Below are positions 26,402 to 62,475 of a stretch of DNA of 64,000 nt, one piece after another (positions within the stretch are counted from its first letter, which is position 1; every line of letters begins with the position of its first letter). The notes under the pieces are model-generated. The model was not told the origin of the DNA and made no database searches. It saw nothing but the letters and a program-made list of their open reading frames with translations. Both the position numbers and the translations under genes were made by a program. The DNA comes from Candidatus Sulfotelmatobacter sp. (GTDB lineage: Bacteria; Acidobacteriota; Terriglobia; Acidiferrales; UBA7541): assembly GCA_035487095.1 (NCBI GenBank), contig DATHMM010000063.1, positions 42,769-106,768 of the forward strand, read 5' to 3'.

Positions 26402-27157
26402 TTATTGCCCGGCGATGAGTTGTTTCAGCTGGGTGAGATCGGGCGAAGCGACGTCGGAAACTGCGCAGAAAGAAAGTCCGTCCTTCTCCCATGCGAGCCA
26501 GTGGTAGCCCTGGGATTCGCCGGCGCCATTCCAGTAATTTGCCGGCTGCGACTTTTCCACGAACACATTGATGACGTGCTTTCGGCGCCCGTAGACGAGC
26601 GCGGCGACAGTGTGTCCACCGGCGGCATCGAGGCGTCCACCGAGTAAGGGGAATCCATCGCTTGCGAAGTCGCGCACGGGCGGCGCGAAATCGACGCGGC
26701 CGTCGAACCACGGCTTGACGGTGTGCTGGTCGGTGGATTCGACATCGGTGAGATGCCCGGGCTGCAGCGAGCGCAGATGCGCATCCACAAAAGAGGCGGC
26801 CATCAACTGCGCGGCGCTCGGAGTCGTAGCTAGCCGGACTTGCCGCCAGCCGAGGAAAACGGCAAATAGAAGGACGGCGGCAACAGCGAGCCATCGCAAG
26901 GGAAAAACCCGAGCCGCGGGAAACGAACGGACTGCGGGAACGGAAGCCCTAGGGAGGAGTTTGCTGCGCAGAGCCTCGGGAGCGCGTTCGTAGAGGGCCG
27001 CCTGCTTGATGGATTGGCGCAACGCTTCTTCCGCGGCGAGTGTGGCTTTGCAATCAGGGCACGATTCGAGATGCTTCTCAAAATTGGCGGCGCTGAGGGC
27101 GTCGAGTTCGCCGTCAAAATAGCCGTGCAATTGATTCTGGGTATGTTCACACGGCAC
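26402..27157 (-). CDS. Anti-sigma factor (zf-HC2/ZAS, TM, periplasmic domain)
   Basis: C...L.GY.DGEL......FE.HL..C..C; one TM; S.DQHTVKPWF.G; GGRLD; overlaps the sigma stop. Confidence 0.9.
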   Translation of the reverse strand: MPCEHTQNQLHGYFDGELDALSAANFEKHLESCPDCKATLAAEEALRQSIKQAALYERAPEALRSKLLPRASVPAVRSFPAARVFPLRWLAVAAVLLFAVFLGWRQVRLATTPSAAQLMAASFVDAHLRSLQPGHLTDVESTDQHTVKPWFDGRVDFAPPVRDFASDGFPLLGGRLDAAGGHTVAALVYGRRKHVINVFVEKSQPANYWNGAGESQGYHWLAWEKDGLSFCAVSDVASPDLTQLKQLIAGQ

Positions 27158-27680
27158 GGCGGGCCTCCTTGGATCCTGGTTGAGAAAGGCAGTCGCGCAA
27201 TTGGGCGCGCGCGCGGGCGAGCCCGGACATCACGGTGCCAATGGGGCGCGATGTAATCTCCGCAATTTCCTTGTACGAGCAGCCCTCGAGTTCGCGCAAG
27301 ACGAGGATCTCGCGGAAGGACTCAGGAAGGGATTCGAGGGCGCGGGTGAGTTGTTCGCGGTTGCTGTCGGCCAGCGCCAGAGTTTCGGGATTTTCGCTTT
27401 CCTGCGGCATAGTGGTTTCGTCGAACTCCGTGAATTCCGCCGCCATGCGATTCTGGCGCAGCCAGGTGAAGCACGTATTGCGCACGATCTGCAGCAGCCA
27501 GGCACGCGCATTGCCGGAGCGGAAGGTGCCGAACGCGCGGAATGCACGAAATACCGCATCCTGCGTGACGTCTTCGGCGTCGGTCCGGTTGCGCAGCAAC
27601 CAGCGCGCCAGGTTGAAAGCGGCGTCCAGATGCGGCAAGACGGTCGCCTCGAACCGGGCTCTGTCCTCTCCCTCTAACAC
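27147..27680 (-). CDS. ECF RNA polymerase sigma factor (ECF26-like), paralog 1
   Basis: LPHLDAAFNLARWL, DAEDV.Q, AWLLQIVRN, LRELEG.SYKEIA, GTVMS.L.RAR. AAAGGT RBS before GTG 27680. Confidence 0.92.
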   Translation of the reverse strand: MLEGEDRARFEATVLPHLDAAFNLARWLLRNRTDAEDVTQDAVFRAFRAFGTFRSGNARAWLLQIVRNTCFTWLRQNRMAAEFTEFDETTMPQESENPETLALADSNREQLTRALESLPESFREILVLRELEGCSYKEIAEITSRPIGTVMSGLARARAQLRDCLSQPGSKEARRAV

Positions 27681-27709
27681 GGTCACCTTTCTCTTGCCCT
27701 TGTCCTGGA

Positions 27710-27736
27710 TAACCTGGCCGGGCTCGATTTTATTCC
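27710..27736 (-). promoter_or_regulatory. ECF promoter GGAATAAA / GAAT-N18-GTTA (autoregulatory, sigma 1)
   Basis: Minus strand reads GGAATAAAatcgagcccggccagGTTA, about 30 nt upstream of GTG 27680. Confidence 0.65.
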
Positions 27737-27789
27737 CGCCGGGGCAATAAAAGCCAAAAAAAGAAATTGAGCCGAAAACGGGGCAGGGC

Positions 27790-27816
27790 GGAATAAAAAC
27801 CCGTGCGGCAGGGTCT
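27790..27816 (+). promoter_or_regulatory. ECF promoter GAAT-N18-GTCT (metallophosphoesterase)
   Basis: GGAATAAAaacccgtgcggcaggGTCT. Confidence 0.7.
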
Positions 27817-27948
27817 ACCCCAATGAACACGTTCACACACGGCGCGGGCTTGCCCCCCTTTCTCTGTAAGTCCGCGCCATTTTTCCGCCGATGGGCAAAA
27901 CGTGATGGGGATCAAGCGCAAAGATAGAGATTCAAGAGGAGAGAAGCG

Positions 27949-28917
27949 ATGACGGATAAAAAGAAGGACGAAATCCTATACGACCATAATCACGACGGTA
28001 TCGACCGGCGCGGGTTTTTGAAGTGCATGGCGTGGGCTGGCACGGGAACGCTCTGCGTCATCAAGGGGGGAGTGCTGAACTCCTACGCTTTCAATCGGGT
28101 TGCCGAGTTGGATCCCGCGGACATGAAGGGCGAGCTGAGTTTCGCGCAGATCAGCGACAGCCACATGGGTTTCAACAAGCCGGCGAACACGGACGTGGTG
28201 GGCACGCTGAAGGCGGCAGTGGACAGGATCAACGCGCTGAAAATGCAGCCGGAATTTCTGCTGCACACGGGCGACATCAGCCATCTTTCAAAGCCGGAGG
28301 AGTTCGACACCGTCGACCAAATTCTGAAGAGCGCCAACCCGAAAGATGTTTTCTATGTGCCCGGCGAACACGACGTGCTGAACGACGACGGGAAGCAATT
28401 CCTGGAGCGCTACGGAAAGGGAAGCAAGGGATCGGGCTGGTATAGCTTCGAGAAAAAGGGAGTGCACTTCGTCGGGCTGGTGAACGTGATGAATCTGAAG
28501 GCCGGCGGCCTGGGCACACTTGGCCACGATCAATTGGAGTGGCTGGAAGACGACGTAAAACATTTGTCGAAGAGCACGCCGATCGTGGTGTTTGCGCACA
28601 TTCCGCTGTGGTCCATCTATCCGGAATGGGGTTGGGGCACGGAAGACAGCGCACAAGCGCTGGGGTACCTGAAGAAGTTTGGATCGGTGACGGTGCTGAA
28701 CGGCCACATCCACCAGACAATGCAGAAGGTGGAGGGCAACGTGACTTTCCACACAGCGACGTCCACGGCGTTTCCCCAGCCCGCGCCCGGGAAGGCTGAT
28801 TCCCCGGGGCCAATGAAGGTGCCGGCGGAGGAATTGCGCGCGTTGCTGGGAATTACCGACGTGAACTTTGTGCGCGGGCAGCAAGCGTTGGCCATTGTGG
28901 ATTCCAAACTGAGCTAG
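27949..28917 (+). CDS. Tat-exported calcineurin-like metallophosphoesterase
   Basis: DRRGFLK Tat motif; ISDSH, HTGDISH, PGEHD, AHIP, NGHIH. Confidence 0.92.
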   Translation: MTDKKKDEILYDHNHDGIDRRGFLKCMAWAGTGTLCVIKGGVLNSYAFNRVAELDPADMKGELSFAQISDSHMGFNKPANTDVVGTLKAAVDRINALKMQPEFLLHTGDISHLSKPEEFDTVDQILKSANPKDVFYVPGEHDVLNDDGKQFLERYGKGSKGSGWYSFEKKGVHFVGLVNVMNLKAGGLGTLGHDQLEWLEDDVKHLSKSTPIVVFAHIPLWSIYPEWGWGTEDSAQALGYLKKFGSVTVLNGHIHQTMQKVEGNVTFHTATSTAFPQPAPGKADSPGPMKVPAEELRALLGITDVNFVRGQQALAIVDSKLS

Positions 28918-28939
28918 TTCCACGAATCTCATTCAAAGG

Positions 28940-28971
28940 AAAAAAGGCCGGAGCACCCGCTCCGGCCTTTT
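28940..28971. terminator. Bidirectional Rho-independent terminator
   Basis: AAAAAAGGCCGGAGC-accc-GCTCCGGCCTTTT between convergent genes. Confidence 0.9.
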
Positions 28972-28996
28972 GATTTTCTACAGTTTGCTTGCTGGC

Positions 28997-30043
28997 TCAG
29001 CGGCCCCCGTGTCCGCCCGGGTGTCCACCGTTCTCGTGCTCCTTCGGAGGCTGCTGATGATTTTGCTGCTGCGGATGCGACGAGTTCTGGTGATTGGCGT
29101 TGCCGCCCGAATTGTTCGAATGGTTGGCGTTCTGATTGTTCTGAGGCGAACTCTGCTGGGAGTGCTGCGAAAAATTCTGCTGGCCGGTATTCGGCCGGTT
29201 GGAATTGTTCTGATTGGACGAGCCGTTCGAACGCGCGCTGGGCGGACGGTCATTTTGCATTGAGCCGTTGTGATTGTTGTTCGCAGAGGAATTCGGCCGG
29301 TTGCCGTTGGAACCCTCGGAACGCGCCGCTACCACGCCCTGGCCATGGAATTGTCCCGGCCTCGCCGTAGCTGCAACGGCGGGGCTCCCGTGATTCTGAG
29401 AGGCCAGCATGGTGCGATCGCTGCGAGCCATCTGTTCGTGCTGGGTCTGCATAGAGGTGGCCGCGATGTGATGATCATGCTCGGCCGCAAGTTCCGCCGA
29501 GGTAGCGTGCGCCGTAACACCTCCCGCTCCGCCGTTATAGCTGACGCGATTTACGGTGACGTTGTTGTTGAAGACCGTCTTGTTCACATAGGTGTTGTGA
29601 ATCACAGTGGTGTTCACGTTGGTGACGGCCGTGTTGTAGTGGAAGGCCCCGCCGCGCCATTCGCCGCCGACGAATCCGACCCCACCGTAGCCGAAGCCAT
29701 AATTAATCCCGCCATAGAAACCCACGTGCGGGCCCCAATAGCCGGCGTGCCACAGATACGCTCCTCCGGCAAAACCCCAATACCCAGGAGTCCAAAGGAA
29801 GCCGGGCGTCGGCGCGACCACCCAGGTGCCCGGAACCCAGTAGTAACCGTCCGGCCCGTAGCCCCAGTAGCCGGGCGTCCAGATATAGCCTGCGGCAGGG
29901 CAGACCGGTTGGGCGTAAACGGGGAGCGCAGGCGGCCCGATGTGCACGGAAATGCCGACGGCGACCTGTGCGGGCACTGCGGCCGGAACTGCAAGAGAGA
30001 AAATCGCGAGCACAACCAATCCCATTATCTTTTTGATGGACAT
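28997..30043 (-). CDS. YXWGXW-repeat secreted protein with N/Q/H-rich disordered tail
   Basis: Signal peptide; PP.LPVY.QP.CP; repeated YIWTPGYW, YYWVPGTW, FLWTPGYW, YLWHAGYW. Confidence 0.9.
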   Translation of the reverse strand: MSIKKIMGLVVLAIFSLAVPAAVPAQVAVGISVHIGPPALPVYAQPVCPAAGYIWTPGYWGYGPDGYYWVPGTWVVAPTPGFLWTPGYWGFAGGAYLWHAGYWGPHVGFYGGINYGFGYGGVGFVGGEWRGGAFHYNTAVTNVNTTVIHNTYVNKTVFNNNVTVNRVSYNGGAGGVTAHATSAELAAEHDHHIAATSMQTQHEQMARSDRTMLASQNHGSPAVAATARPGQFHGQGVVAARSEGSNGNRPNSSANNNHNGSMQNDRPPSARSNGSSNQNNSNRPNTGQQNFSQHSQQSSPQNNQNANHSNNSGGNANHQNSSHPQQQNHQQPPKEHENGGHPGGHGGR

Positions 30044-30269
30044 GTTCGAATCCTCGCAAAATTGACTGCCGCCGACCGGGTGTGGCGGCTTCGAAAACGT
30101 GCAGTCTTGGTGCTGTTGAGAAGTTTAACACGCAGTCTTGGCAGAAGTTGCAGATCCGAGACTAACGATTGTTGAATCAATAACATGCAAGCAGTGAGGG
30201 GGAGGTCCGCTCCCCGCAAGGAAAGACGGGAGCCGTGGGGCACTTGGTCCTGACCGCCGACCGCGAGGC

Positions 30270-30596
30270 TTAGTCTCCCGTGACAAGGGACTTTCTGAAC
30301 CAGTTGCTAACCTCTCCGTGAAATTCCAACCCCAGGGCAAACCGGCCGTCCAGGAGGCGCTCGCAATAGACGACGCGCGCGTTCGCTTCCAACTCCCCGT
30401 CCGCGGATTTGATCAATATCCGTTCATTCAGCTCCCGGGCGTGCCGGACGAGAACACGCAACCCCAGAGAGCAGATGTTCTCGGTCGTCGAGCGTTCACC
30501 CGCAGACGGTTCCTGGAGGCTGGAAATCCTTACGGGTATGGCCAGCCGAGTCCTTTTTTCAAGTCGTCCAGACCGCAACGGCATTTGGTGACTCAC
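30270..30596 (-). CDS. PilZ domain protein
   Basis: RLEKR (RxxxR), TENICSLG (NxSxxG-like), ARVVYC...G.EF. Confidence 0.85.
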   Translation of the reverse strand: MSHQMPLRSGRLEKRTRLAIPVRISSLQEPSAGERSTTENICSLGLRVLVRHARELNERILIKSADGELEANARVVYCERLLDGRFALGLEFHGEVSNWFRKSLVTGD

Positions 30597-30692
30597 TTTC
30601 CAAACTGCCTTCGGAATTGCTGCACCGGGCTGGACGGGGCTGAAAGACCGAGTTCCTTCGCAGGGTTCTTAACGATAATGAAACATTAAAGA

Positions 30693-31565
30693 TCATGTTG
30701 CCTGGATCGTTTGGAGTACCGCCTCCGGCTCGGAGAGCCTGCTCAACCGGCGCCTCTTCTGCTCGTACATGGCCTGATCGGCGCGGACCATCCATTCTCC
30801 AATCGAAGCATTGCTGCAAATATTGATTCGCACGGCACCCAGGCTGAGATTAATCGCGTAACGGGACTCTCCCGCGTTAGCGGACCGCAGATCCTCGGCA
30901 AGCCTGGCCCGGATCGCCGCTTCACTGTTGTCAGAGGCCTCGATCGCCAGCACGGCGAACTCGTCTCCGCCCAACCGGGCAATCACGTCCGAATCGCGAA
31001 AGGTCATTTTCAGGGCCTTGGCCGTGCGCTTGAGGGTCAGGTCTCCCTCGCCATGGCCGAAGCAATCGTTAATGTGCTTCATGCCATCGACGTCCAGGAA
31101 GAAAAGAAGAATCCCACGCCCGGTGCGATGACCGATCTTCAACTGACGTTCGGCGATGGCCATGAAGCCCCGGCGGTTGCACAAGCCGGTAAGTTCATCG
31201 GTCAGCGCCAGGTTGCCCAGCTCCGCCTGCAGCATGTATTGCTTGGCCGCGCATTGCACCGCGCGCAGAAGCAATTTTTTCATTCGGCCGGCCTGGCCGT
31301 TGTCGAGCAACGGGTCGTCCTGCACTTTGCGCACGTCCTGGAGCAAACTGGCGAGCTCCCGGTTCGCATCGGACAGCAAGGTCTGGAAAATGGTTTCGTT
31401 GGCGATTTCTTCCCCTTGTTCCACAAGGCCGGAAACATCGCGCCGCAACTGCTCAGCGTCTTCCGTCATTCTCAACAACGCCGCGTCAAACGGGTATTTC
31501 TTCGATCGAAAATGTTCGGCCTGCTTGCTTGAGCCGCCGCGAACTTTGGTTTGTCCCTCGATCAT
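30693..31565 (-). CDS. Diguanylate cyclase (GGDEF) with N-terminal helical region
   Basis: TDELTGL.NRRGF, D.D.MK.IND.FGH..GD, RDSD I-site, intact GGDEF, ADQAMY..K. Start inferred from GAAGGA RBS. Confidence 0.9.
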   Translation of the reverse strand: MIEGQTKVRGGSSKQAEHFRSKKYPFDAALLRMTEDAEQLRRDVSGLVEQGEEIANETIFQTLLSDANRELASLLQDVRKVQDDPLLDNGQAGRMKKLLLRAVQCAAKQYMLQAELGNLALTDELTGLCNRRGFMAIAERQLKIGHRTGRGILLFFLDVDGMKHINDCFGHGEGDLTLKRTAKALKMTFRDSDVIARLGGDEFAVLAIEASDNSEAAIRARLAEDLRSANAGESRYAINLSLGAVRINICSNASIGEWMVRADQAMYEQKRRRLSRLSEPEAVLQTIQAT

Positions 31566-31678
31566 CGCGTTTTGTCCTTCAGCCCCGACCATCCTTCGGC
31601 TGGCTGCTCCTGGGCCATTTCCAGGGAAACGTTTCGCACAAAACGCCCGGGAAGCCCTCTTCATGCTCCGTGCGGGAT

Positions 31679-31894
31679 TCAATGGCCCGCTTCCATCTGA
31701 TCTGTCGCCAGCCTGCAAATTCGCCGCAACTCCTCGTAAGTGAAGTACATCTCTTCTTCTCTGCCGGCGCGCTCCAGGTGGCCTATTCCAGTTTCAACGG
31801 AAATTCGGCGCAATTCGGATTCAGGGATGCCCAGCAGATAGGAGGCTCTTGCTTGGGTCACAAATTTCGGGACATCGTTATTCAATTCGTTCAT
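31679..31894 (-). CDS. Small MerR/excisionase-like HTH protein (71 aa)
   Basis: FVT...AS.LLGIP...LRR ... YFTYEELRRI pattern; GAGG RBS. Confidence 0.6.
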   Translation of the reverse strand: MNELNNDVPKFVTQARASYLLGIPESELRRISVETGIGHLERAGREEEMYFTYEELRRICRLATDQMEAGH

Positions 31895-51600: not shown

Positions 51601-52467
51601 CTGGGATACTCGACGCTCAACATGGAACTGGGCGACGCCAATTCCAACTATAATGCGCTGCAGCTGAGCCTCACCAAGCGCGCCGGAATCCTTACTGCCA
51701 TGGTTTCCTATACGTACTCGAAGGCCATGGGAGATGGTGGCGGCGCGGGTGACGCCTATAACGAAAATCCTGAGCCGGAATGCCCCTTCACTTGCCTCGT
51801 CAGCACCGCGGCCAACCCAGTCTTGGTCAACGGTCTAACCACTGCGCTGGCGGGCGGAACGCAGTCCGGTGGGGTGATGGAAACTTGGAAACAATTTTAC
51901 TACGGCAAGTTAAGCTTCGACGCAACGCACATCGTGTCCACGGCTTTCACGGTCGAATCACCCTGGGGAAAGAGGATGACTGGCTTCAAAGGTGCACTCG
52001 TGAAGGGATGGTCGCTGAGCGCGCTCATGCACTACCAGAGCGGTTCGCCGCTCACGGCGACAGGCTCGCAAGCCGTGGGCCTTAACGGCTCCAATATTAC
52101 TCGGCGGGCGGGTATCGTTCCGGGTCAATCGCTTGACTTCAGTGGCACATGCGCGAACACAAAAGCAATATGTTGGGTCAACCCAAACGCTTTTGCGCTG
52201 GAGAGCGCACTCGGTGCGGGTGACGCACCTGTGAACAACATCATCGGACCCAACTTCTACCAGTGGGACCTATCGGCGCGCAAGATGTTTCCTCTGTCTT
52301 TCAGGGAGGGTATGAGCGTGTTGTTCCAGGCGGATGCGTTTAATGCCTTCAACCGGGCGAACTGGAATAATCCTACCGTGAATAACGTTGGTGCCGCCTC
52401 TTTTGGACAGATCACCGGCTCGCTCCCGGGTCGCGTGTTACAACTCGGCGGCAAATTCAATTTCTAG
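48625..52467 (+). CDS. TonB-dependent receptor (carboxypeptidase-regulatory N-domain, Oar-like)
   Basis: IAGTITD.SGAVVPNA.V; IQEV......DAEFGR; KSGG.QYHG; QD.WR; C-terminal RVLQLGGKFNF. Start is approximate. Confidence 0.92.
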   Translation: MMLLRPENRFSAIHRGTIKRRLLLAAVTNLMMMLLTVLLFTGTVEFAAAQDIFGRIAGTITDLSGAVVPNARVTILNESTQIARILNANKDGYFVADELPAGTYSVSAEQKGFKTTTRRGNALAAGARLTVDLQLDLGQVTERVVVEAVGDTVNTTSGEISTTITQDQVLDMALNQRHYESLVGLVPGAALQGSGTNPAALTSNYNNSVADINGQRLDGQNWSVDGGFNLDSGSNNSVFNQVGIDFIQEVAVQASNYDAEFGRSASATINVVTKSGGEQYHGGFFEFVQNNDFNAENPGTKLTNPTATGYAAVPPFHFNNFGWDVGGPIPFLQPKGKLFFFAGQEWKKFRGVYPGLTAASVQETFPTALEATGNFTDVYNGGAGLLMKTPSVIPASCGGVLYTAPNVINPACITGDGAAFAALYTSAAKMSVAGALPTSTLTNNTTFNLPNPLNLREDIIRIDEHPNDKHSIYVRYIHDNVDIFNPYGTFPSLANAVPVDPDLRNRPGYNIQIGWTYVFSPSLINSLRFNADWHSQTTPLQGNAWMKSVYGFQFIPPLGNPSQFPGGLPTITFTGNPKFPTSGPASVNGPAPNFLESPTADLSPADHVSWQVHNHSIKFGYEFARNRKTQNSRTNYDGIINFSATAGATNGSNSTGDPFADALLGNFNSFGQNSAVTTGQFRFNDSEAYLQDTWRVSRKLSLVLGLRYIHSTPTYAQGNNMTNFSPYAFDPALVPTFTGGLATSSINPASPGLCSGQQLNVIGTPVVTVECNGLVRPGGVPSDQVGRVPVTFENPQLLAAIPPTAARGFYNTENVWAPRFGFSYAPLGEKTVIRGGFGIFYDHPEGNVLGAGINSQGYVPWAQSASISGTNASLAQFDSAPGAGTVAAPSTISGISGVDPKLVVARSYQFSLGVQRELPQGMLVQASYVGNLGRHILRGPAVNNATWTDQGFIPVSPNPNTLACPAGINATAYQCSGGFAPTGLSKDQIRPYLGYSTLNMELGDANSNYNALQLSLTKRAGILTAMVSYTYSKAMGDGGGAGDAYNENPEPECPFTCLVSTAANPVLVNGLTTALAGGTQSGGVMETWKQFYYGKLSFDATHIVSTAFTVESPWGKRMTGFKGALVKGWSLSALMHYQSGSPLTATGSQAVGLNGSNITRRAGIVPGQSLDFSGTCANTKAICWVNPNAFALESALGAGDAPVNNIIGPNFYQWDLSARKMFPLSFREGMSVLFQADAFNAFNRANWNNPTVNNVGAASFGQITGSLPGRVLQLGGKFNF

Positions 52468-54501: not shown

Positions 54502-55269
54502 TTAGCTCTTGGAGATTTGGTTGGTCTGCACGGGATTCTCGGTTGCCCTGTAGTCTCCAAATTCTTCCGTCCGGATATCGTCATCGCTGACGTCCAGGGA
54601 ACGGAGCAGATCTGTCATCGAGGTGACCATTCCAGACGGCCCCGCTACATAGAAGACAGGGCTGTTGAGCCCAGTTAAGTAACGCGAGAGCAGTTGCCGA
54701 TTGATGTGACCTACTTCATGGCGCCAGGCCGAGTATGTCAGCCCGGTGATTGTTGGGATGAGCGTGAAGCGGGGATTTCGCGCCGTTAAGGCTTCCAATT
54801 CTTCCAGAAACGCCGCGTCCACCGCCTCTCGGTTCGAATAGAACAAATATTGCTTGTGGGGCATCCGTTCGTGTGCGGCCCAGTCCAAAATGCTGCGGAC
54901 CGGCGTAATGCCGATGCCGCCTGCGAGAAATACCGCCGGCCTGGCAAAGTCCTTATGCAAGGTAAACGATCCTCTCGGACGGCTGACTCTAAACTTGGTC
55001 CCAAAGGCAGCGCACATCAAAGCAGTCTTAAAACTAGTCTCCCGCATTCGCATCGCGATCATGACCAAGCCTTTGTCATGGGGGGAGTTTGCGAGAGAAA
55101 AGGTGCGTAAATTGTCGCTCTCGTCTCCAGCGGGTGGGTGCAGGAAGGCAAAGTCGGCGTGTTGGCCGGCTCGGAAGTCATAATCGCTTCCGTTCGTGTC
55201 AAACCAAAACGTCATCGTACCCCTGGCGATTCTTTGGCGATCCACTAAAGTCATTTGATAGTCAGCCAC
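54502..55269 (-). CDS. FAD/NAD(P)-binding oxidoreductase (ferredoxin-reductase-like)
   Basis: AGGAGG RBS; F.AGQ, RTFSLA, AGGIGITP..S, YSNR, Y.AGP..MV, EEF. Confidence 0.9.
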   Translation of the reverse strand: MADYQMTLVDRQRIARGTMTFWFDTNGSDYDFRAGQHADFAFLHPPAGDESDNLRTFSLANSPHDKGLVMIAMRMRETSFKTALMCAAFGTKFRVSRPRGSFTLHKDFARPAVFLAGGIGITPVRSILDWAAHERMPHKQYLFYSNREAVDAAFLEELEALTARNPRFTLIPTITGLTYSAWRHEVGHINRQLLSRYLTGLNSPVFYVAGPSGMVTSMTDLLRSLDVSDDDIRTEEFGDYRATENPVQTNQISKS

Positions 55270-55439
55270 GATTCCTCCTTCGCGTGATTCTTACGCGATG
55301 GCCCGCTTGGGGCATCGGCGGCATTTCCACTCAGGTAAACAAGATTCCTTGCAATTGATTCCAACCCGGGACGCCCGAACATTCACCAAGCGGCCAAATG
55401 CGGATAGCCGATCGAAGCGGGGCGTTCCTGGAGGCCCAC

Positions 55440-55913
55440 TCAGTCCCCTCCCGCGATTTCCTCGGCGTACTTCTCTGCCGCGCCAACCACCGGACATGCA
55501 GCAAATTCCCGCCAGGACTCGCGTCCCTTTAACAGCGTATTGGAGTCGTTCCTTTTCAGCAGGACTACACTTTGCACCTTCGCCTGACCGGCAATTTGCC
55601 CCGGCTCGGTAACGCAAACATAGATTCCGGAGGGTCTCTGGTCGAGAACCTTGATCGACAACTTCCTCGTGCCATCCATCGCTTGGATGATGCTTTCCCT
55701 TTCATTCACTTCCTGCGCAGCGAATCCGTAATCCGCAAAAGTTTTCTTTCCTTTTTCCTTCTTCGGCCGGACCGCAGCCGGCAGCGAAGTGACGTCCAGT
55801 TTCGTGACGATAAACTCCGCCACCTTTTCCTTGGGATATACATCCTTATCCCCCGCCACGGTCAGCGGCGCGTGGGACAGCGCTGCGAGCGCCAACACTA
55901 CTTTGATTTTCAT
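55440..55913 (-). CDS. Secreted hypothetical protein
   Basis: AAGGAG RBS; signal peptide MKIKVVLALAAL; two Cys. Confidence 0.7.
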   Translation of the reverse strand: MKIKVVLALAALSHAPLTVAGDKDVYPKEKVAEFIVTKLDVTSLPAAVRPKKEKGKKTFADYGFAAQEVNERESIIQAMDGTRKLSIKVLDQRPSGIYVCVTEPGQIAGQAKVQSVVLLKRNDSNTLLKGRESWREFAACPVVGAAEKYAEEIAGGD

Positions 55914-56055
55914 TTTTGTTCTCCTTTTCTTACTGTGGACTGCTCCCCGCCTGTTTCTTTGCAGGGGCCGCCCGAGTTTCTGTTTTTGCCGGTCTCGCTG
56001 CGGCCTCAACGAATGCCGTCAGAAAATCCCAGGGTTCAGCCGTTTCGGAAAACGT

Positions 56056-56505
56056 CTATCCTGGTCCATTCACTCCAGTGAGAAATCCGCCCAGGTGGCC
56101 CGTCACCGCCACAATTGCTACTGCCACAACCTCGACCGGCAGACGGTATCCGGGCAGAACTGCTCCTCGCTTGCGCTTGGTTCTCAGGTGAATCAGCCAC
56201 ACGATCCAGATCAGCGCGCTCGACATGACGCCGAACACCAAATGGAACAGAAGGATCCCTTTAAGCCGCTGGCCTTCGAGTTCCCATTGCCAGGCGAGAA
56301 TTCCCGTGATCAATACGGGAATGGTTGCGATCGCCGCGGCGAACAAATTGCAATAGGCCGCCGCGGCCAGCACACGCCGCCTGGTCCGATACGCAAGAAA
56401 ATCAAAGAGCACGCCAATGATGAACAGGGCGATCGGGAAATGAATCAGCACGACGTGTTGCGCGTGCTTTGCGAAAATCACCGATTTAATGTCAAACGCG
56501 TGCAA
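56056..56505 (-). CDS. DUF2231 family membrane protein
   Basis: H..LIHFPIAL, TG..AW, H...G, TGHLGG; GAGGAG RBS before TTG. Confidence 0.85.
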   Translation of the reverse strand: MHAFDIKSVIFAKHAQHVVLIHFPIALFIIGVLFDFLAYRTRRRVLAAAAYCNLFAAAIATIPVLITGILAWQWELEGQRLKGILLFHLVFGVMSSALIWIVWLIHLRTKRKRGAVLPGYRLPVEVVAVAIVAVTGHLGGFLTGVNGPG

Positions 56506-56622: not shown

Positions 56623-56649
56623 AGACCGGTACACCAGCCGATTTATTCC
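56623..56649 (-). promoter_or_regulatory. ECF promoter GAAT-N18-GTCT (DUF2231 operon)
   Basis: Minus strand reads GGAATAAAtcggctggtgtaccgGTCT. Confidence 0.7.
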
Positions 56650-56703
56650 AGTCCGGCGGTCAGGCGGGAAGCGCGACCGCACTTCCCTGGCGCGCCACGA
56701 GGG

Positions 56704-56730
56704 AGAATAAAATCGGGCGTTCGGCGGTTC
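56704..56730 (+). promoter_or_regulatory. ECF promoter GAAT-N18-GTTC (autoregulatory, sigma 2)
   Basis: AGAATAAAatcgggcgttcggcgGTTC. Confidence 0.6.
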
Positions 56731-56763
56731 CTACTAATGAGGCCTTACTTTCAGGGGTGAATT

Positions 56764-57303
56764 GTGAGTGAGTTGCAGCTCGAAGAACGGGAGCGCTTTG
56801 AGCAACTGGTGCTGCCGTACGTCGACGCCGCTTTCAACCTCGCGCGCTGGCTGTTGCGCGGGCGCGCTGATGCCGAGGACGTCGCTCAAGAAGCATTGCT
56901 CCGGGCGTGCCGTTTCTTCCGCGGCTTTCATGGCGGCGACGCGCGTGCCTGGCTGCTGCAGATCGTACGCAACACTTGCTACAGCTGGCTGGAGAAGAAT
57001 CGTCCTATGGAACTCAGCATGGAATTCGACGAAGAGATACACCTGCTGGATAGCGCCACGCCAGAAACCCTCGCCATTGCAGGCGATGATCGGGAGCGCC
57101 TCATACTTGCGCTTGAGACGTTGCCTCCGCGTTTTCGGGAAGTCCTTGTCCTTAGGGAGCTCGAAGGCTGTTCCTACAAGGAGATTGCGGCGATCACATC
57201 GCTTCCCATTGGCACGGTTATGTCTTCGCTCTCACGCGCCCGCCGCCAGTTGCATTCGGCGCTGACAAATTCCATTCAGAAGGGGGTCGTCCGTGAAGTG
57301 TGA
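56764..57303 (+). CDS. ECF sigma factor (ECF26-like), paralog 2
   Basis: Close paralog of 27147-27680: DAAFNLARWL, AWLLQIVRNTC, LRELEGCSYKEIA. Confidence 0.92.
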   Translation: MSELQLEERERFEQLVLPYVDAAFNLARWLLRGRADAEDVAQEALLRACRFFRGFHGGDARAWLLQIVRNTCYSWLEKNRPMELSMEFDEEIHLLDSATPETLAIAGDDRERLILALETLPPRFREVLVLRELEGCSYKEIAAITSLPIGTVMSSLSRARRQLHSALTNSIQKGVVREV

Positions 57304-58042
57304 CTTTCGTGACTCTTTGCTCCAGGGCTATTTTGACGGTGAACTAAGTGATCGCAGGGCTGCTGAATTCGAGCGCCACCTGGGACATTGCGACCACTGC
57401 GCGACTGAGCTCGTGGACCTGGATTGGTTGAGCGGTAGACTGCAGCTTACTCCAATCTATGAGCTTGCCCCCGCCTCGCTGCGGCGGACAATTAACACAC
57501 ACCTCCGCCCTATTGCGCCAACCCCTACTGCGTCGCAGCCTCTCCTTTGGCAATGGCTGACTGCCGCGGCGGCGCTGCTTTTCATCGCCTTCATATTGTG
57601 GAGAGTGAGCCCCGAGCTTCGCAGCGACGATTACCAGGCCGAACTTGCAGACGAAATTGTCGAAGCGCATCTGCGCTCACTGCCGCCGGGGCGCACGACC
57701 GAAATCGCCTCCAACGATGAACGTCTCGTCAAAGGGTGGTTCGATGCCAAACTCAAGTTCACTCCCCCGGTTCGTGACTTCGCCGGGGCCGGTTTCGTGC
57801 TGAACGGCGGGCGCCTGGATGTTGTTGAAGACCGCATGGTCGCGGTGCTCGTCTATGAGCATAACGGCCGTTCAATCGATGTATTCGTCTGGCCCACCCG
57901 AGAACCGGACACGTCACCGCGCGCAGGGTCCCGGCAAGGGTTCCAATGGGTTGATTGGCGTAGGGACAAAATGGAATTCTGCGCCGTGGGCGACGCAGCT
58001 CCGGCTGATCTTGTACAGCTCAACCGGCTGATAGCCGAATAG
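57293..58042 (+). CDS. Anti-sigma factor (zf-HC2, TM, periplasmic domain), paralog 2
   Basis: GYFDGEL..FE.HL..C..C; TM; VKGWF; GGRLD; overlaps the sigma stop. Confidence 0.9.
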   Translation: MKCDFRDSLLQGYFDGELSDRRAAEFERHLGHCDHCATELVDLDWLSGRLQLTPIYELAPASLRRTINTHLRPIAPTPTASQPLLWQWLTAAAALLFIAFILWRVSPELRSDDYQAELADEIVEAHLRSLPPGRTTEIASNDERLVKGWFDAKLKFTPPVRDFAGAGFVLNGGRLDVVEDRMVAVLVYEHNGRSIDVFVWPTREPDTSPRAGSRQGFQWVDWRRDKMEFCAVGDAAPADLVQLNRLIAE

Positions 58043-58213
58043 CCACAGTGTTGTTAAGGGTGCAGTCCCACGCGGCACGTGGAGCGCCGCCTCCGCGCGC
58101 CGTTGCGAATCACCCCGAAAGGTTGGTCGCAGAAGCGAGCTCCCTGAACTCTCGCCCCAAAGAATTCCACGCAAGAAGCGGAATCGTGGCTTCTCTCCTC
58201 AAATTTACCGGCT

Positions 58214-60145
58214 TCAATGGCTGAAACCGATGCGGCGCACAAGCTCCTGGAATCGCGGATCGGGTCGGAGGGGATCGAACCCCGGTCGCAGGAGGACACC
58301 CGGATTAAATCGTTCTTCGTAGCCTTTTTGGAGCCAGGTCATTGCCTGGTTCTTGTCACCGAGCGCCGCATAGACCACGGCAATTTCCGAGGCATGAGAA
58401 TAGCCTGGGCTCGAGCGTTTCTTCAGGTCGGCCAGCAGCTTTGCCGCTTCGCTCTTTTTGCCGGATGCGGCATAGGCACGGGCAAGATTAGCCAAGCATG
58501 TCGGGCTTCCCGCGGAAAGTTGCACCGCCTTCTGCAGTTCCGTGATCGCCTCATCGCGCATCTCTTTTTGGAGGTACGCCTGTCCCAGTTGGTTATGCGC
58601 GAGAGCAAAATTAGGATCCATCTCGATCGTCTTGCGGCTCTGGCGTATCGATTCGTCATAAGAACGCGCAAGGAGCAGCAGCTCCGCCAGGTCGGCGTTG
58701 ATGATAAGCGAAAGCGGATCCAGGTTTTCCGCTTTTTCCATTTCCAAGATTGCCTCGTCATACCGACCCAAAAGACTCAAATGCCATGCATACCAATGAT
58801 GTGCGGTCGCGTAGCCCGGGTTCAGTTCAATCGCCCGCTGAAATTCCTTTTCGGCAGCGGGAAAATCCCAGTCGAATCCGTCCAGGCAGAAGGCCAAAGA
58901 GTTGTGCGCTTCGCCGAGCGTGCTGTCCAATTCCAGAGCTTTGATCGCCGCGGCTTTTGCTTTGGGGAGGGCCTCCTTGGGCGTCATCACCCCATACTGC
59001 CAGTCTCCCAGCAACGCATACGTATCTGCCAAGCCGGAATAAGATTGGGCGTATTTGGGATCCTGTTCGATGGCCTGAGTGAAATAGGCCAAAGCAACTT
59101 TCAAACCTTCCGACGTTCGCTTATTCCAGAAATAGCGTCCCTTGAGATAGGACTCATAAGCTTCTGGATTCACAACCCGCACACTTTTCAGTGCAGCCTG
59201 TTCCTGTGCATTCAAATTGATCCGGATTTGATCGGCAATTGCTCTAGCCACTTGGTTCTGAAGCGCCAGGGTGTCCCGCAGTTGACCCTCATAGCTCTGG
59301 GACCATAAGTGCTTGTCAGTCGCGGCTTCGATCAGCTGCGCCGTAATCCGAACCTGGTCTCCGGAACGAAGCACTGTCCCTTCTATCACGGCGTCCACGC
59401 CCAACTCGCGAGCGATCTCCGGCAGTGGCTTACGCGCACGCTTATACGCCATCACGGAGGTGCGCGATATCACGCGCAACGCCCTGATCTGGCCGAGATC
59501 CGAAATCAACTCGTCCGTCATGCCATCCGCGAAGTAATCCTGGGACGCATCGCTCGAGAGGCTCTCCAGCGGAAGGACGGCCAGAGAGCGAATGAGAGGA
59601 GCCGGATGTTTCCAGGAATAAAGTTTCCAAGTGGCGAGAGATACCGCCACCAGAAGCAGTGCCACGATCGCGGTGATCTTCCACGGGATGGAAGGCGCGA
59701 CAGATTTGGGCGTTGTGGGTTTGCCGGCCGGATCCGGGCGCACAGTAGCATCTTTGCTGGGATTAAGCTGAGTGGCGAGTTCCGGACTGTGAACCGGGCC
59801 TGCATCCCCAGCTCTGACCTCCGCGAGGAAGCGATAGCCGCGACGAGAGACAGTTTCAACGAAGCGGGGACTTTCGGCGGAGTCCCCCAAGGCCTCGCGA
59901 ATTTTATTGATCGTCTTGTTGAGCCCGTGGTCGAAATCCACGAAAGTGTCCGCGGGCCAGAGTTTTTTCTGGAGTTCCTCGCGGGTCACGACCTCGCCGG
60001 GATGTTTAAGCAGCGTCGCGAGGACCTGGAAGGGTTGTTCCTGAAGGCGGACCCGCAGGCCGTGCTTGCGCAATTCCCCAGCGCGAAGATCCAGTTCGAA
60101 CACCCCAAAACGAAGCCGCCCGCGATCCTGATGTTCTTCTTCCAT
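58214..60145 (-). CDS. CadC-like wHTH - TM - TolB-like - TPR transcriptional regulator
   Basis: RFGVFELD...GELRK.G..V.LQEQPF, VVTREEL...LW, IETV.RRGYRF-type motif; SLAVLP; DGMTDELI; multiple TPRs. Confidence 0.9.
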   Translation of the reverse strand: MEEEHQDRGRLRFGVFELDLRAGELRKHGLRVRLQEQPFQVLATLLKHPGEVVTREELQKKLWPADTFVDFDHGLNKTINKIREALGDSAESPRFVETVSRRGYRFLAEVRAGDAGPVHSPELATQLNPSKDATVRPDPAGKPTTPKSVAPSIPWKITAIVALLLVAVSLATWKLYSWKHPAPLIRSLAVLPLESLSSDASQDYFADGMTDELISDLGQIRALRVISRTSVMAYKRARKPLPEIARELGVDAVIEGTVLRSGDQVRITAQLIEAATDKHLWSQSYEGQLRDTLALQNQVARAIADQIRINLNAQEQAALKSVRVVNPEAYESYLKGRYFWNKRTSEGLKVALAYFTQAIEQDPKYAQSYSGLADTYALLGDWQYGVMTPKEALPKAKAAAIKALELDSTLGEAHNSLAFCLDGFDWDFPAAEKEFQRAIELNPGYATAHHWYAWHLSLLGRYDEAILEMEKAENLDPLSLIINADLAELLLLARSYDESIRQSRKTIEMDPNFALAHNQLGQAYLQKEMRDEAITELQKAVQLSAGSPTCLANLARAYAASGKKSEAAKLLADLKKRSSPGYSHASEIAVVYAALGDKNQAMTWLQKGYEERFNPGVLLRPGFDPLRPDPRFQELVRRIGFSH

Positions 60146-60419
60146 TTTGGATTACCGCACGCGCAGCGGAGTCTACCACCTTTATAGCTTCCGGGGACCT
60201 GGGGAAGGGACAACTCGATCTAAGCACCGTGCCAACTGCAATTTAGCAGGGGACCCACTTTCCCGTGATGGAGGACTCCCTGTCCATTGTCATTTCCTTG
60301 GCGCCCGCTCAATCTCGCCCGCATGCACCGGCAGGATATTCACCGGCGTCGCCTCAACCTCTTTCAGAGGCAGAGTTTGCGGTTGCCCACGAGGTTCCGG
60401 GGCCATGTGGAGGCGATTT

Positions 60420-60584
60420 ATGGTTCAGGCAAGAGCAATCCGATGCAGTCAGTGCCAACAGCCCATTGCCCCTGGCGAAAGGTTCGTCAGCTTCAAGATT
60501 CCAGGGAAAGAATCCTACCAGTTCTTCCATTGCCGATTGCCGGCCCGAGACTGCTGGGAGGGCCACCTCAAGAGGGACAAGTGA
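60420..60584 (+). CDS. Small putative zinc-binding protein (54 aa, CxxC...H...C)
   Basis: GGAGG RBS 6 nt before ATG 60420; RCSQC..PI..G.RF ... FH.......CW. Confidence 0.6.
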   Translation: MVQARAIRCSQCQQPIAPGERFVSFKIPGKESYQFFHCRLPARDCWEGHLKRDK

Positions 60585-60708
60585 GGCTTCGCGTGCCCGG
60601 CACGTGTGTGTCGCAGCCTGCCAGCGATATCAATCGCACTATCCTTTCGAATTTCGATTGCCAGCAAGAATGGGAAATTGCGAGCAAGCCACTTTCCCGG
60701 AGGCGGCG

Positions 60709-61323
60709 ATGACAGCACAGAATTGGCCCGAGAGTTTTGAGCAGGCTGTCTTACCGCACCTTGACGCAGCTTATAATCTCGCGCGCTGGTTGACGCGCAA
60801 CGAGCAGGACGCTCAGGACGTTGTCCAGGAAGCGTATTTACGCGCTTTCCGGCACTTTCGCGACTTCCGTGGCGGCAATGCGCGCGCCTGGATCCTGAAA
60901 ATTGTCCGAAATACTTGCTATAGCTGGCTGACCGCTAACCGGCCCCTGCAAGACGCAACTGAATTTGACGAAAATCTCTTCGCTCCTGATTTTCGCTCTC
61001 TCAACCCGGAAGAAGTTGTACTCCAAAACAACAGCGGCACTGTGGTACGAGAGGCGCTGAAGAAGCTTCCGGCGAATTTTCGGGAAGTAATCGTTCTTCG
61101 CGAACTCGAAGGGTTGTCCTACCGGGAGATCGCGGATATCACCGGCATGCCGGCAGGCACTGTGATGTCGAGCTTATCGCGCGCAAGGGGCCGCCTCCGT
61201 AAAGTTCTGACAACTTCCATGAACGAAGGTCCGGTGCCAAGTTCGCGAGAATCACCAGTTATGAACACAGCAAAATACGGAACGAATCATCCGAATCCAC
61301 TCAAGACAACGGCTATATCTTAA
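60709..61323 (+). CDS. ECF sigma factor (ECF26-like), paralog 3, with no adjacent anti-sigma
   Basis: GGAGG RBS; LPHLDAAYNLARWL, AWILKIVRNTC, LRELEGLSYREIA; C-terminal extension about 25 aa beyond the paralogs. Confidence 0.9.
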   Translation: MTAQNWPESFEQAVLPHLDAAYNLARWLTRNEQDAQDVVQEAYLRAFRHFRDFRGGNARAWILKIVRNTCYSWLTANRPLQDATEFDENLFAPDFRSLNPEEVVLQNNSGTVVREALKKLPANFREVIVLRELEGLSYREIADITGMPAGTVMSSLSRARGRLRKVLTTSMNEGPVPSSRESPVMNTAKYGTNHPNPLKTTAIS

Positions 61324-61402
61324 CGACTGAAATACTCACAATCTTATTCCCGCTGCTAAAACCATGCAGCATTGGGGAATTATTGAAGGCCGCGCGTAGT
61401 CT
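61324..61402. promoter_or_regulatory. Divergent pair of ECF-type promoters (- strand 61324-61350; + strand 61376-61402)
   Basis: Minus: GGAATAAgattgtgagtatttcaGTCG. Plus: GGAATtattgaaggccgcgcgtaGTCT. Both are GAAT-N18-GTC. Confidence 0.5.
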
Positions 61403-61467
61403 TGCACGGTGTAGACAATGAAATATCGCGCAATTCAAATCCGCTTTTAACCCTGAGGAAGAAGGTC

Positions 61468-62244
61468 ATGCCAGTTACCGCAAATGCCCTACACGCAAAC
61501 TTAGCAATTGGATCCATGGCAAAGCCTGCGGTTGGGAAGCGGCGTTGCCTGGGTTGGGACGCGCGGCGTGGCACGAAATGCCTCTCGAAGGAGGCCGTGC
61601 CGCAACTTTCTTCCCCCGCCTGCGATAAAGAAAACGAGACGGGCATCATTCAGCGAGCTGCCGAGGGCGATCCGGCCGCGTTTGAATGCCTCTACCGGTC
61701 GCATTGCAAGCGAGTGTATGCAATATGCCTTCGCATGCTCGGAAATACGGCTGATGCGGAAGATCTCACTCAAGAGGCCTTCCTGCTGTTGTTTCGCAAA
61801 ATTAAAACGTTTCGTGGGGAATCGGCATTTTCCACATGGCTGCACAGGTTGGTGATCAACACGGTGCTGATGCACCTGCGCAAGAAGTCTTTAGCTATAA
61901 CCTCGATGGAAGCGGGTCCCTCTCCGGATGGTGAAACCGCCCCGTCGAGCGTCGAAATCGCCGCTTCCGACTTGTTACTGGAGGGGTCGATTGACCGAAT
62001 CAATCTCAGCCGCTGCGTCGCGCAGTTGTCAGCAGGCTCGCGCGCAATATTTGTCCTGCACGATATCCGGGGGTACCAACATCGGGAAATCGCGAAAATG
62101 ATGGGACGCTCGGAAGGCGTCTCGAAGTCGCAGTTGCACAGGGCTCGAAAGCGGCTGCGCGAATTGCTGCATGAAATTCAGCGGGAAAAGTATCGCGAAA
62201 AGCGCGTGGCTGCCCAGAAGACACTCTGTACGGATGAGCGCTAG
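61468..62244 (+). CDS. ECF sigma factor (RpoE/SigW-like, a different group from paralogs 1-3)
   Basis: GD..AFE.LY, AEDLTQEAFL, FRGESAFSTWLHR, LHD..GY.H.EIA, SKSQLHRAR. Start is approximate. Confidence 0.88.
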   Translation: MPVTANALHANLAIGSMAKPAVGKRRCLGWDARRGTKCLSKEAVPQLSSPACDKENETGIIQRAAEGDPAAFECLYRSHCKRVYAICLRMLGNTADAEDLTQEAFLLLFRKIKTFRGESAFSTWLHRLVINTVLMHLRKKSLAITSMEAGPSPDGETAPSSVEIAASDLLLEGSIDRINLSRCVAQLSAGSRAIFVLHDIRGYQHREIAKMMGRSEGVSKSQLHRARKRLRELLHEIQREKYREKRVAAQKTLCTDER

Positions 62245-62448
62245 GTTCGAGATTGGCGGAGAGGGGAAGCAGCCAATCGGCCTTGTGCGGTGCAGCACAA
62301 GGCCTTTAAGCCAATGATTCGGGGGGAATGCTTCTCCCTGGTCCCCGCCTACGCCAAAGCCCTGTCTCAATGACTCCGCTGGAGGTTCTCAGGAATTGGG
62401 AACTAACAAGTAGAAAACCAGATTTATTAACTGAATCAAAGTATTCAG

Positions 62449-62475
62449 GGAATATTTTCTTCGATCCCGTGGTTA
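62449..62475 (+). promoter_or_regulatory. ECF-type promoter GAAT-N18-GTTA (haloperoxidase)
   Basis: GGAATAttttcttcgatcccgtgGTTA, about 80 nt upstream of ATG 62557. Confidence 0.5.

Follow-up and report, generated by a model that had tools for sequence, protein, structure and literature searches.

The window analysed here is a stretch of 64,000 nucleotides on contig C63 of an assembly of Candidatus Sulfotelmatobacter sp. (Acidobacteriota), which was recovered from a soil metagenome (4.9 Mb in 217 contigs, ~80% complete; G000 in the following). It codes for three closely related extracytoplasmic function (ECF) sigma factors, sigma A, sigma B and sigma C, and contains seven short sites with a common GAAT-N18-GT(C/T) arrangement, which an original prediction had interpreted as the promoters of a regulon on which the paralogous sigmas converge. 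By comparing these loci with their counterparts in related genomes and in other phyla we reach high confidence, from sequence evidence, that the seven sites are genuine, evolutionarily conserved ECF-type promoters. We also present a candidate regulon of exported metal- and redox-linked proteins and assess the position of this system among the known ECF groups.

Sigma factors, anti-sigma factors and the seven sites

The relevant genes lie in three loci (Table 1). The open reading frames (ORFs) of sigmas A, B and C are real, and their products show 55-62% mutual identity (62% between sigma A and sigma B). Beside sigC lies the gene for a fourth ECF sigma, sigma D, which was absent from the text of the original prediction; it is ~30% identical to the other three, and its start codon is uncertain (the reading frame is open from 61402). 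All four proteins contain the Sigma70_r2 and Sigma70_r4_2 domains only and are recovered by the TIGR02937 sigma70-ECF model with 95-103 bits against a cut-off of 42.9, as is the case for ECF (group 4) sigmas. At both locus A and locus B the gene for a zf-HC2-containing anti-sigma factor overlaps the stop codon of the sigma gene. Anti-sigma A displays an N-terminal zinc-binding domain (C3, H-x3-C-x2-C), one hydrophobic span and a C-terminal domain of ~145 residues, and its best match in NCBIfam is an RsrA-type anti-sigma (2e-13, under the cut-off of that model). The adjoining anti-sigma gene and putative autoregulatory promoter that characterize ECF systems are found for sigmas A and B, but not for sigma C. 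The original prediction had further supposed that the paralogs answer to different sensors; this does not hold, since anti-sigmas A and B are full-length homologues (41% identity) and sigma C is devoid of an anti-sigma.

The seven sites read just as had been predicted with respect to strand, coordinates and spacing. Two of the three loci contain back-to-back pairs, with one site facing the sigma gene and the other facing a divergent target: a twin-arginine translocation (Tat)-signal metallophosphoesterase at locus A, whose closest solved relative is a GpdQ-type phosphohydrolase (3e-7), and an operon headed by a DUF2231 gene at locus B. Soil metatranscriptome contigs identical in sequence to the window fall inside sigA, antiA and the metallophosphoesterase gene (four runs), which is weak evidence for transcription of this locus.

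Table 1. Genes and predicted promoter sites of the three loci (positions in the window)
Feature	Position	Strand	Description
Anti-sigma A	26402-27157	-	zf-HC2 (Pfam, 3e-11); gene overlaps the end of sigA
ECF sigma A	27147-27680	-	177 aa; GTG start at 27680; Sigma70_r2 + Sigma70_r4_2
Site 1	27710-27736	-	GGAATAAAATCGAGCCCGGCCAGGTTA; boxes GGAATAAAATCG...GGTTA; predicted autoregulatory promoter of sigA-antiA
Site 2	27790-27816	+	GGAATAAAAACCCGTGCGGCAGGGTCT; boxes GGAATAAAAA...GGGTCT; predicted metallophosphoesterase promoter
Tat-signal metallophosphoesterase	27949-28917	+	322 aa; DRRGFLK twin-arginine motif; Pfam Metallophos 6.5e-14
Target operon of locus B	54502-56505	-	three genes: DUF2231, 157-aa ORF, oxidoreductase
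NAD-binding oxidoreductase	54502-55245	-	Pfam
157-aa ORF	55440-55913	-	no Pfam match
DUF2231 membrane protein	56056-56505	-	Pfam
Site 3	56623-56649	-	GGAATAAATCGGCTGGTGTACCGGTCT; boxes GGAATAAATCGG...CCGGTCT; predicted DUF2231 operon promoter
Site 4	56704-56730	+	GAGAATAAAATCGGGCGTTCGGCGGTT; GAGAAT in place of GGAAT; boxes GAGAATAAAATCG...GCGGTTCC; predicted autoregulatory promoter of sigB-antiB
ECF sigma B	56764-57303	+	179 aa; Sigma70_r2 + Sigma70_r4_2
Anti-sigma B	57293-58042	+	zf-HC2 (Pfam, 7e-8), hydrophobic span, C-terminal domain of ~145 aa
Winged-helix (Trans_reg_C) + TPR regulator	58214-60145	-	Pfam; divergent from sigC
ECF sigma C	60709-61323	+	204 aa; Sigma70_r2 + Sigma70_r4_2; ~30-aa C-terminal tail; no adjacent anti-sigma
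Site 5	61324-61350	-	GGAATAAGATTGTGAGTATTTCAGTCG; promoter-like; begins at the sigC stop codon; convergent with (antisense to) sigC
Site 6	61376-61402	+	GGAATTATTGAAGGCCGCGCGTAGTCT; boxes GGGAATTAT...TAGTCTT; predicted sigD promoter
ECF sigma D	61516-62244	+	Sigma70_r2 + Sigma70_r4_2; different ECF group; no adjacent anti-sigma
Site 7	62449-62475	+	GGAATATTTTCTTCGATCCCGTGGTTA; boxes GGGAATATTTTCT...GGTTA; predicted promoter of the haloperoxidase-like gene
Vanadium-haloperoxidase-like protein	62557-63888	+	443 aa; secreted; PAP2 superfamily (Pfam PAP2 1.3e-7)

Excess of the motif over chance

As had been cautioned from the outset, the bare GAAT-N18-GTY motif is prone to chance occurrence: the window has 27 matches against 17.6 expected, which is barely an enrichment. 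With the -35 box extended to GGAATWW (GGAATWW-N16-GTY) there are 7 matches in the window versus 0.84 expected from shuffles of the whole window, and 6 in its 12.6 kb of intergenic DNA versus 0.175 expected, a count reached in none of 1000 shuffles. We controlled for composition by varying the length of the spacer (GGAATAA-Nk-GTY). Genome-wide, the N16 form has 11 intergenic matches, while other spacings have 1-3 and N15 has 6; beyond this GGAATAA subset GGAATWW shows no enrichment. Likewise, a position weight matrix (PWM) trained on sequences from other genomes only recovered 30 matches of at least 16 bits at the correct gap, 19 of them intergenic, versus a mean of ~14 matches at ten wrong gaps (intergenic 0-7, mean ~3). 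The genome scan, one of the checks named together with the prediction, hence reveals an intergenic excess that is specific to the correct spacing. Within the window each intergenic PWM match of at least 10 bits is one of the seven sites, with sites 1 to 7 scoring 25.3, 22.2, 24.6, 18.4, 20.1, 13.4 and 11.5 bits respectively.

An eighth match in the window (52364-52389, + strand) was rejected: it falls within coding sequence, stays under 10 bits on the PWM and lacks a syntenic counterpart on the contig examined from G035, the closest relative of G000. Among the further high-scoring matches in the genome, those on contigs C22 and C155 are in coding DNA, that on C149 is upstream of a glycosyltransferase gene, and the one at C17:1392 is hairpin-like (GGGCGGAC...GTCCGCCC) and probably a terminator.

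Conservation of the paired promoters in the genus

Scanning of orthologous upstream regions, another of the checks named, showed that the motif is kept while the spacers vary. Orthologues of the metallophosphoesterase are present in 28 of the 61 related genomes searched; none of the conclusions draws on genome G043. In 26 of these 28 loci the gene stands divergent to a sigma A orthologue; GGAAT-N18-GTY lies 5' of the metallophosphoesterase gene in 25 (the -10 being GTCT in 22 of the 25) and on the opposite strand, 5' of the sigA orthologue, in 24. The match to site 2 is also seen in a genome from another family of the same class (L027). In a motif-anchored alignment the AAA that follows GGAAT and the T that follows GTC are nearly invariant, even though they are outside the search pattern, and the 15-nt spacer is essentially randomised. 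Orthologues of site 1 similarly retain GGAATAAA and GT(T/C) with a variable spacer. The genus consensus is GGAATAAA...gGTCT, and the typical layout consists of GGAATAAA-N15-GTCT/GTT promoters placed back to back between sigA and the metallophosphoesterase gene, a pair that is retained in ~25 species of the genus. At locus B, both boxes of sites 3 and 4 are kept in G035 amid otherwise diverged intergenic DNA, with a differing spacer in site 3 and with the two boxes of site 4 identical, inclusive of its GAGAAT variant.

Most of the orthologous metallophosphoesterase promoters additionally display a block a-a-T-GAAAC ~10 nt 3' of the -10 GTCT, which is followed by a leader of ~125 nt (27816-27949 in the window); a search of Rfam recovered no known RNA family in positions 26000-64000, the long 5' leaders included. 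Locus A is flanked by two genes (25180-26232 and 28997-30043, both on the - strand), one coding for a FecR-domain protein with a Gly/His-rich tail and the other for a WXXGXW-repeat protein with a long low-complexity tail rich in Asn, Gln, Ser and His.

A module shared across phyla

Taking an alignment of the sigmas as the query, we then searched a single genome of each species and collected the loci of the 80 best homologues, which come from Acidobacteriota, Verrucomicrobiota, Gemmatimonadota, Methylomirabilota, Binatia, Chloroflexota, and Alpha-, Beta- and Gammaproteobacteria. A zinc-binding anti-sigma (ZAS) is encoded downstream of the sigma in 73 of the 80 loci, and the motif is found 25-200 nt 5' of the sigma gene in 53, with only the sigma-facing motif being matched in 16. 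Divergent metallophosphoesterase genes are present in 37 loci, 27 of which have both promoters; they are usually followed by a cupredoxin gene (35 loci) and sometimes by a DUF2231 gene (8). The megaplasmid of Ralstonia solanacearum, for instance, is organized alike, its GGAATAA boxes standing back to back and its -10 element being GGTA. Since the module recurs across phyla, Ralstonia included, the divergent promoter pair is an old, conserved trait of the family and no peculiarity of G000. What is unusual in G000 is the number of sigma paralogs, with five matches at E <= 1e-30 (three close and two distant) versus a genus median of one.

The original prediction had pointed to a repeated back-to-back geometry. 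At loci A and B it is indeed repeated, with GAAT-to-GAAT distances of 56 and 57 bp respectively (54-55 bp when measured between the 5' ends of the GGAAT boxes), but no fixed rule applies in the genus or across phyla: GGAAT box distances cluster at 43-45, 54-56 and 63-65 bp in the genus (loci L001-L027) and range from 9 to 171 bp across phyla (loci L094-L173). The cross-phylum distances show a weak periodicity of ~10-11 bp (Rayleigh R ~0.37, p ~0.01) and none at 8-9 or 12-13 bp, pointing to a helical phasing of the paired promoters; the corresponding within-genus figure is inflated by the relatedness of the genomes.

A divided gene set at loci A and B

Most members of the genus have a single locus combining the metallophosphoesterase, a gene-sized gap (occupied by a cupredoxin gene where tested) and DUF2231, and in other genomes the homologues of DUF2231 and of the 157-aa ORF come after the metallophosphoesterase and cupredoxin genes as part of a single divergent operon. 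In G000 and G035 the gene set is divided, with the phosphoesterase at locus A and DUF2231, the 157-aa ORF and the oxidoreductase at locus B. The metallophosphoesterase-linked sigma of most genus members is closer to sigma B (73-82% identity) than to sigma A (61-70%), and yet it is sigma A, not sigma B, that adjoins the phosphoesterase in G000. This suggests either a split of the ancestral locus or the replacement of one copy in the lineage of G000 and G035. None of the papers searched links DUF2231 to sigma factors.

The third locus

The genes for the winged-helix/TPR regulator, sigma C and sigma D form a cluster that is conserved in G000, G025 (L261) and G026 (L262), the latter two having orthologues of sigC; neither the regulator nor sigC was found at the syntenic locus of G035. 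Reading of the sequence upstream of sigC revealed no GGAAT-N18-GT promoter, and sigma C may be controlled transcriptionally by the winged-helix/TPR regulator rather than by an anti-sigma. Just 5' of sigC there is a small ORF (60406-60584, + strand) encoding 59 residues with a Cys/His-rich pattern (C-x2-C ... H-C ... C-x3-H) and no Pfam match; it has no tblastn match in G025, G026 or G035 and may be spurious.

The GGGAATTAT and GTCTTAC boxes of site 6 are kept upstream of the sigD orthologues of G035, G025 and G026, with a spacer that is 2 nt longer in G026. Because sigC is on the + strand, site 5 does not face a gene but points into sigC from its stop codon, where it may function in antisense or interference control, or in producing a small RNA. 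The two GGAAT boxes of sites 5 and 6 start only 26 bp apart, unlike the 54-55 bp seen at loci A and B, and in G000, G035 and G025 (L177 1255-1290 in the latter) the pair keeps the same 19-nt offset, site 5 being degenerate in G026. Counting G000, four genomes therefore retain the boxes of site 6 and three retain site 5. In G035 (L073 9716-9745) the retained site 5 is preceded by another + strand gene, which is not homologous to sigC by BLAST.

Candidate targets beyond the sigma loci

The predicted outputs, namely exported metal- and redox-linked proteins such as the Tat metallophosphoesterase, the products of the DUF2231 operon and the vanadium-haloperoxidase-like protein, were upheld, and further candidates of this kind, di-haem peroxidase-like and cupredoxin-DUF2231 proteins, emerged elsewhere in the genome. 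Residues 63-430 of the haloperoxidase-like protein match the vanadium-dependent haloperoxidase 4CIT (6e-28). GGAAT-N18-GTY is located 80-130 nt 5' of all five of its orthologues (69-100% identity), whereas no such match precedes any of nine paralogues (~40% identity), and site 7 itself is kept in G035 amid unalignable intergenic DNA. Strong, well-placed matches are also found 5' of two genes for di-haem oxidoreductases (DHOR, putative peroxidases) on contigs C60 and C194, 5' of a cupredoxin-DUF2231 gene pair on C165, and 5' of a sigma paralog on C138 that is more distant and has a further DUF2231 gene in divergent orientation beside it. For DHOR the pattern is similarly sharp, with the motif 77-103 nt upstream of 10 of 10 orthologues of at least 69% identity and of 0 of 18 paralogues of less than 57% identity. 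In G031 and G032 the DHOR and haloperoxidase-like genes are divergent neighbors, each with a motif of its own. By contrast, the 18.5-bit match upstream of a gene for a TauE-family exporter (contig C11) was set aside: the motif is present in only 1 of 26 homologous upstream regions and is missing even at the 91%-identical orthologue in G035, and we treat it as a chance or lineage-specific match.

Proposed mechanism

Taken together, we assign a probability of roughly 85% to the reading in which the seven sites serve as promoters for RNA polymerase bearing ECF sigmas of one widespread family, which includes sigmas A, B and C. In such a system sigmas A and B would each be held at the membrane by the cognate zinc-binding anti-sigma, with its one transmembrane segment and outside domain. 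An envelope, redox or metal signal would inactivate the anti-sigma, and the freed sigma would drive transcription from GGAATAAA-N15-(G/A)GTCT or GTT promoters. One promoter would face the sigma's own operon, resulting in positive autoregulation, and its back-to-back partner would face the divergent target operon. The core targets would be exported or membrane-bound metal/redox proteins, i.e. the Tat metallophosphoesterase and DUF2231 with its downstream genes; those not adjoining sigA, sigB or sigC would comprise the vanadium-haloperoxidase-like protein, the di-haem peroxidase-like proteins and the cupredoxin-DUF2231 pair. The occurrence of a promoter of the same class before the unrelated sigma D suggests a cascade, and another would run antisense into the gene of sigma C, which lacks an anti-sigma. 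We infer which sigma reads which site and, by analogy with mapped promoters of Sinorhizobium meliloti, a transcription start ~6-9 nt 3' of the GTC/GTT box. As the candidate targets are metal and haem proteins exported by the Tat or Sec pathway, the inducing signal suggested is envelope redox or metal stress.

Several observations weigh against this reading. No minus-strand ORF follows site 5, leaving it without a gene to serve, and sites 6 and 7 have low PWM scores and depend on conservation in only 3-5 related genomes. The metatranscriptome contigs are short, none of them crosses an intergenic region or promoter, they carry no start-site or strand information, and carry-over of DNA is possible. 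The genes were called by a crude, home-made codon-score caller, making the labels "intergenic" and "coding" approximate. The relatives are non-independent samples, and conservation counts hence overstate significance; the boxes nonetheless appear to be under selection, because the spacers between them are saturated with substitutions. Finally, in Cupriavidus metallidurans no start sites could be detected, under the conditions used, at the promoters predicted for ECF207 and ECF26 sigmas (PMC13492112).

Shared or insulated paralogs, and other alternatives

In an alignment, sigmas A, B and C are nearly identical where they recognise the -35 and -10 elements, and relatives in which a single paralog was found (e.g. 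G032, G017, G010 and G022) keep the motif 5' of the di-haem peroxidase-like and haloperoxidase-like genes. For these reasons it is plausible that the paralogs cross-recognise promoters and converge on one regulon. The chief competing explanation accepts the promoters as real and takes the paralogs to be insulated, with each sigma reading its own pair through subtle differences in the flanks (...AAAATCG after the -35; GTT versus GTCT) and with the trans sites belonging to one paralog or to the distant C138 paralogs, so that there is no shared regulon. ECF systems are mostly rather orthogonal, and paralogs retained within one genome tend to diverge functionally. Moreover, throughout the genus the sigma-facing promoters share the extended GGAATAAAATCG box and mostly GTT, and the target-facing ones have GTCT; sites 6 and 7 in turn carry GGAATTA and GGAATAT rather than GGAATAA. 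Against such insulation stand the almost identical DNA-reading regions and the trans-target motifs of the single-paralog relatives, from which it appears that one sigma type can serve all the site variants; the S. meliloti sigmas RpoE1 and RpoE4 also have an overlap on record in the promoters they read (PMC3511301). We retain insulation as a possibility against which the balance of the evidence tips.

That only the divergent pairs of loci A and B are functional, sites 5-7 being chance matches or leftovers, is improbable: the low scores of sites 6 and 7, the lack of genome-wide enrichment of GGAATWW outside the GGAATAA subset and the unconserved TauE-upstream match of similar appearance are in its favor, but the motif of site 7 recurs at all five orthologues amid unalignable DNA, and the boxes of sites 6 and 5 persist in four and three genomes respectively. 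Weaker still is the idea that a dimeric transcription factor, such as the winged-helix/TPR regulator, binds the GGAATAA boxes and above all the inverted pair of sites 5 and 6 (TTATTCCC-N24-GGGAATTA), which would then not be -35 elements, for even if the fixed offset of this inverted repeat in three genomes, the lack of a gene downstream of site 5, the ~10-11 bp periodicity expected of contacts on one helix face and the conservation of the regulator gene beside sigC-sigD might be so explained, GT(C/T) stands at the exact ECF spacing from each box (in three of three genomes for site 5), the bipartite motif precedes family sigma genes across phyla, inclusive of the 16 loci with only the sigma-facing match, G035 retains sites 5/6 at a locus where the regulator gene was not found, and box distances varying from 9 to 171 bp between loci are unfit for one dimeric operator.

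Returning to the ECF promoter reading, its fullest extension would be an expanded version of the cross-phylum module of sigma, membrane ZAS anti-sigma and divergent Tat metallophosphoesterase-cupredoxin-DUF2231 operon, in which five paralogs act on one promoter class, with sigmas A and B gated by anti-sigmas, sigma C subject to antisense feedback from a convergent promoter, a cascade leading to sigma D, and promoter pairs placed on one helix face. We regard this complete scheme as unlikely. The more restricted outline offers a well-supported, testable regulon for an ECF family common among soil bacteria of several phyla. Its conserved core targets (Tat metallophosphoesterase, cupredoxin and DUF2231, joined in the genus by the di-haem peroxidase-like and haloperoxidase-like proteins) are suggestive of a response to redox or metal conditions in the envelope. 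For the Acidobacteriota, whose regulation has barely been studied experimentally, it also provides concrete promoters and sigma/anti-sigma pairs that are open to testing in heterologous hosts.

Comparison with known ECF systems

Sigmas A, B and C find their nearest named homologues, at ~50% identity, among the Burkholderiaceae (Ralstonia, Cupriavidus and Caballeronia), and across phyla the -10 box of the family is AGTC, GGTA, GGTC or GGTT. Of 94 family promoters, 91 carry G or A ahead of GT and 3 carry C; all seven sites of the window have G or A at this position. The ECF Hub consensus table gives GGAATA/CGTTTT for ECF26 and GAATAA/GGTCT for ECF207, the group of C. metallidurans RpoO (PMC13492112 Table 4). 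Since G or A precedes GT in nearly all of these promoters, the G/A-GTCT -10 box, as judged from sequence, fits the ECF207 consensus better than that of ECF26.

The closest parallel is thus probably with ECF207, typified by RpoO and RsoA of C. metallidurans (Rmet_0597/0596), whose consensus agrees with the GGAATAAA...(G/A)GTCT found here. The anti-sigma domain of RsoA, the ZAS anti-sigma of RpoO, is unusually RsrA-like (PMC3177212), and RsrA is likewise the model that anti-sigmas A and B match best. A difference is that G000 has three close and two distant paralogs instead of one; at the promoter predicted for RpoO, moreover, no start site was detected.

ECF26 was the group named in the original prediction. 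Its motif and anti-sigma layout are as stated there: the cross-species consensus of ECF26 promoters has a GGAATA -35 and a GT -10, start sites have been mapped, and each anti-sigma is made up of an anti-sigma domain followed by transmembrane and periplasmic parts (PMC6180224). The mapped S. meliloti promoters include GGAATAGTATGACACGGCGTTCCGTCTC (PMC6180224, PMC3511301). Membership in ECF26 is less well supported, given the G/A-GTCT -10 and an identity of only 34-37% to an ECF gene at 79 kb of pSymA, which we presume to be rpoE6 from its locus-tag number and position only. Several similarities with the S. meliloti systems (RpoE1, RpoE4 and RpoE6 with their EcfR anti-sigmas) remain, namely the GGAATA and GT(C) elements, with ~17-18 nt from GGAAT to GTC in mapped promoters, autoregulation, which is predicted here, overlap between paralogs, which is plausible here, and small regulons of periplasmic redox proteins such as sulfite oxidase, cytochrome c and pseudoazurin (PMC3511301, PMC6180224); the zf-HC2 domain, hydrophobic span and C-terminal domain of anti-sigmas A and B may correspond to the ZAS-transmembrane-periplasmic (COG5662) layout of ECF26. 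The dissimilarities are in the -10, which is C-GT (CGTTTT/CGTCT) in ECF26 and has G or A before GT here, and in the gene neighborhoods, with sulfite oxidase or catalase/cytochrome b561 in ECF26 versus metallophosphoesterase, cupredoxin and DUF2231 in the present family. On this basis we lean slightly towards sigmas A-C being ECF207-like; assignment to ECF26 is the less favored possibility, and placement in some other group seems improbable.

The actinobacterial ECF12 systems, SigR/SigH with RsrA/RshA, resemble the present one in their GGAA(T/C)/GTT consensus (PMC6338062 for SigH), autoregulation and zinc-binding anti-sigma. Mycobacterium tuberculosis SigH is the closest solved relative of sigma B (4e-24), and in NCBIfam SigH_actino is the second-best sigma model and RsrA the best anti-sigma model. 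However, the scores lie far under the respective cut-offs (96-110 bits versus 251.55, and 50.2 versus 62.5), RsrA is small and soluble, unlike the membrane-anchored anti-sigmas A and B with their ~145-aa C-terminal domain, and the ECF12 targets belong to the thioredoxin/mycothiol system rather than being exported metalloproteins.

Seen against these systems, the original prediction was right in outline; it erred in giving the paralogs different sensors and on what site 5 does, and probably also on the family label. The promoter class, autoregulation, divergent targets and overlap between paralogs are all already known for ECF sigmas, and the present case adds little conceptually. Its anatomy of an autoregulatory promoter and a divergent target promoter supports a standard ECF circuit, and the system is a fairly ordinary regulon, a paralog-rich representative of a known circuit type.

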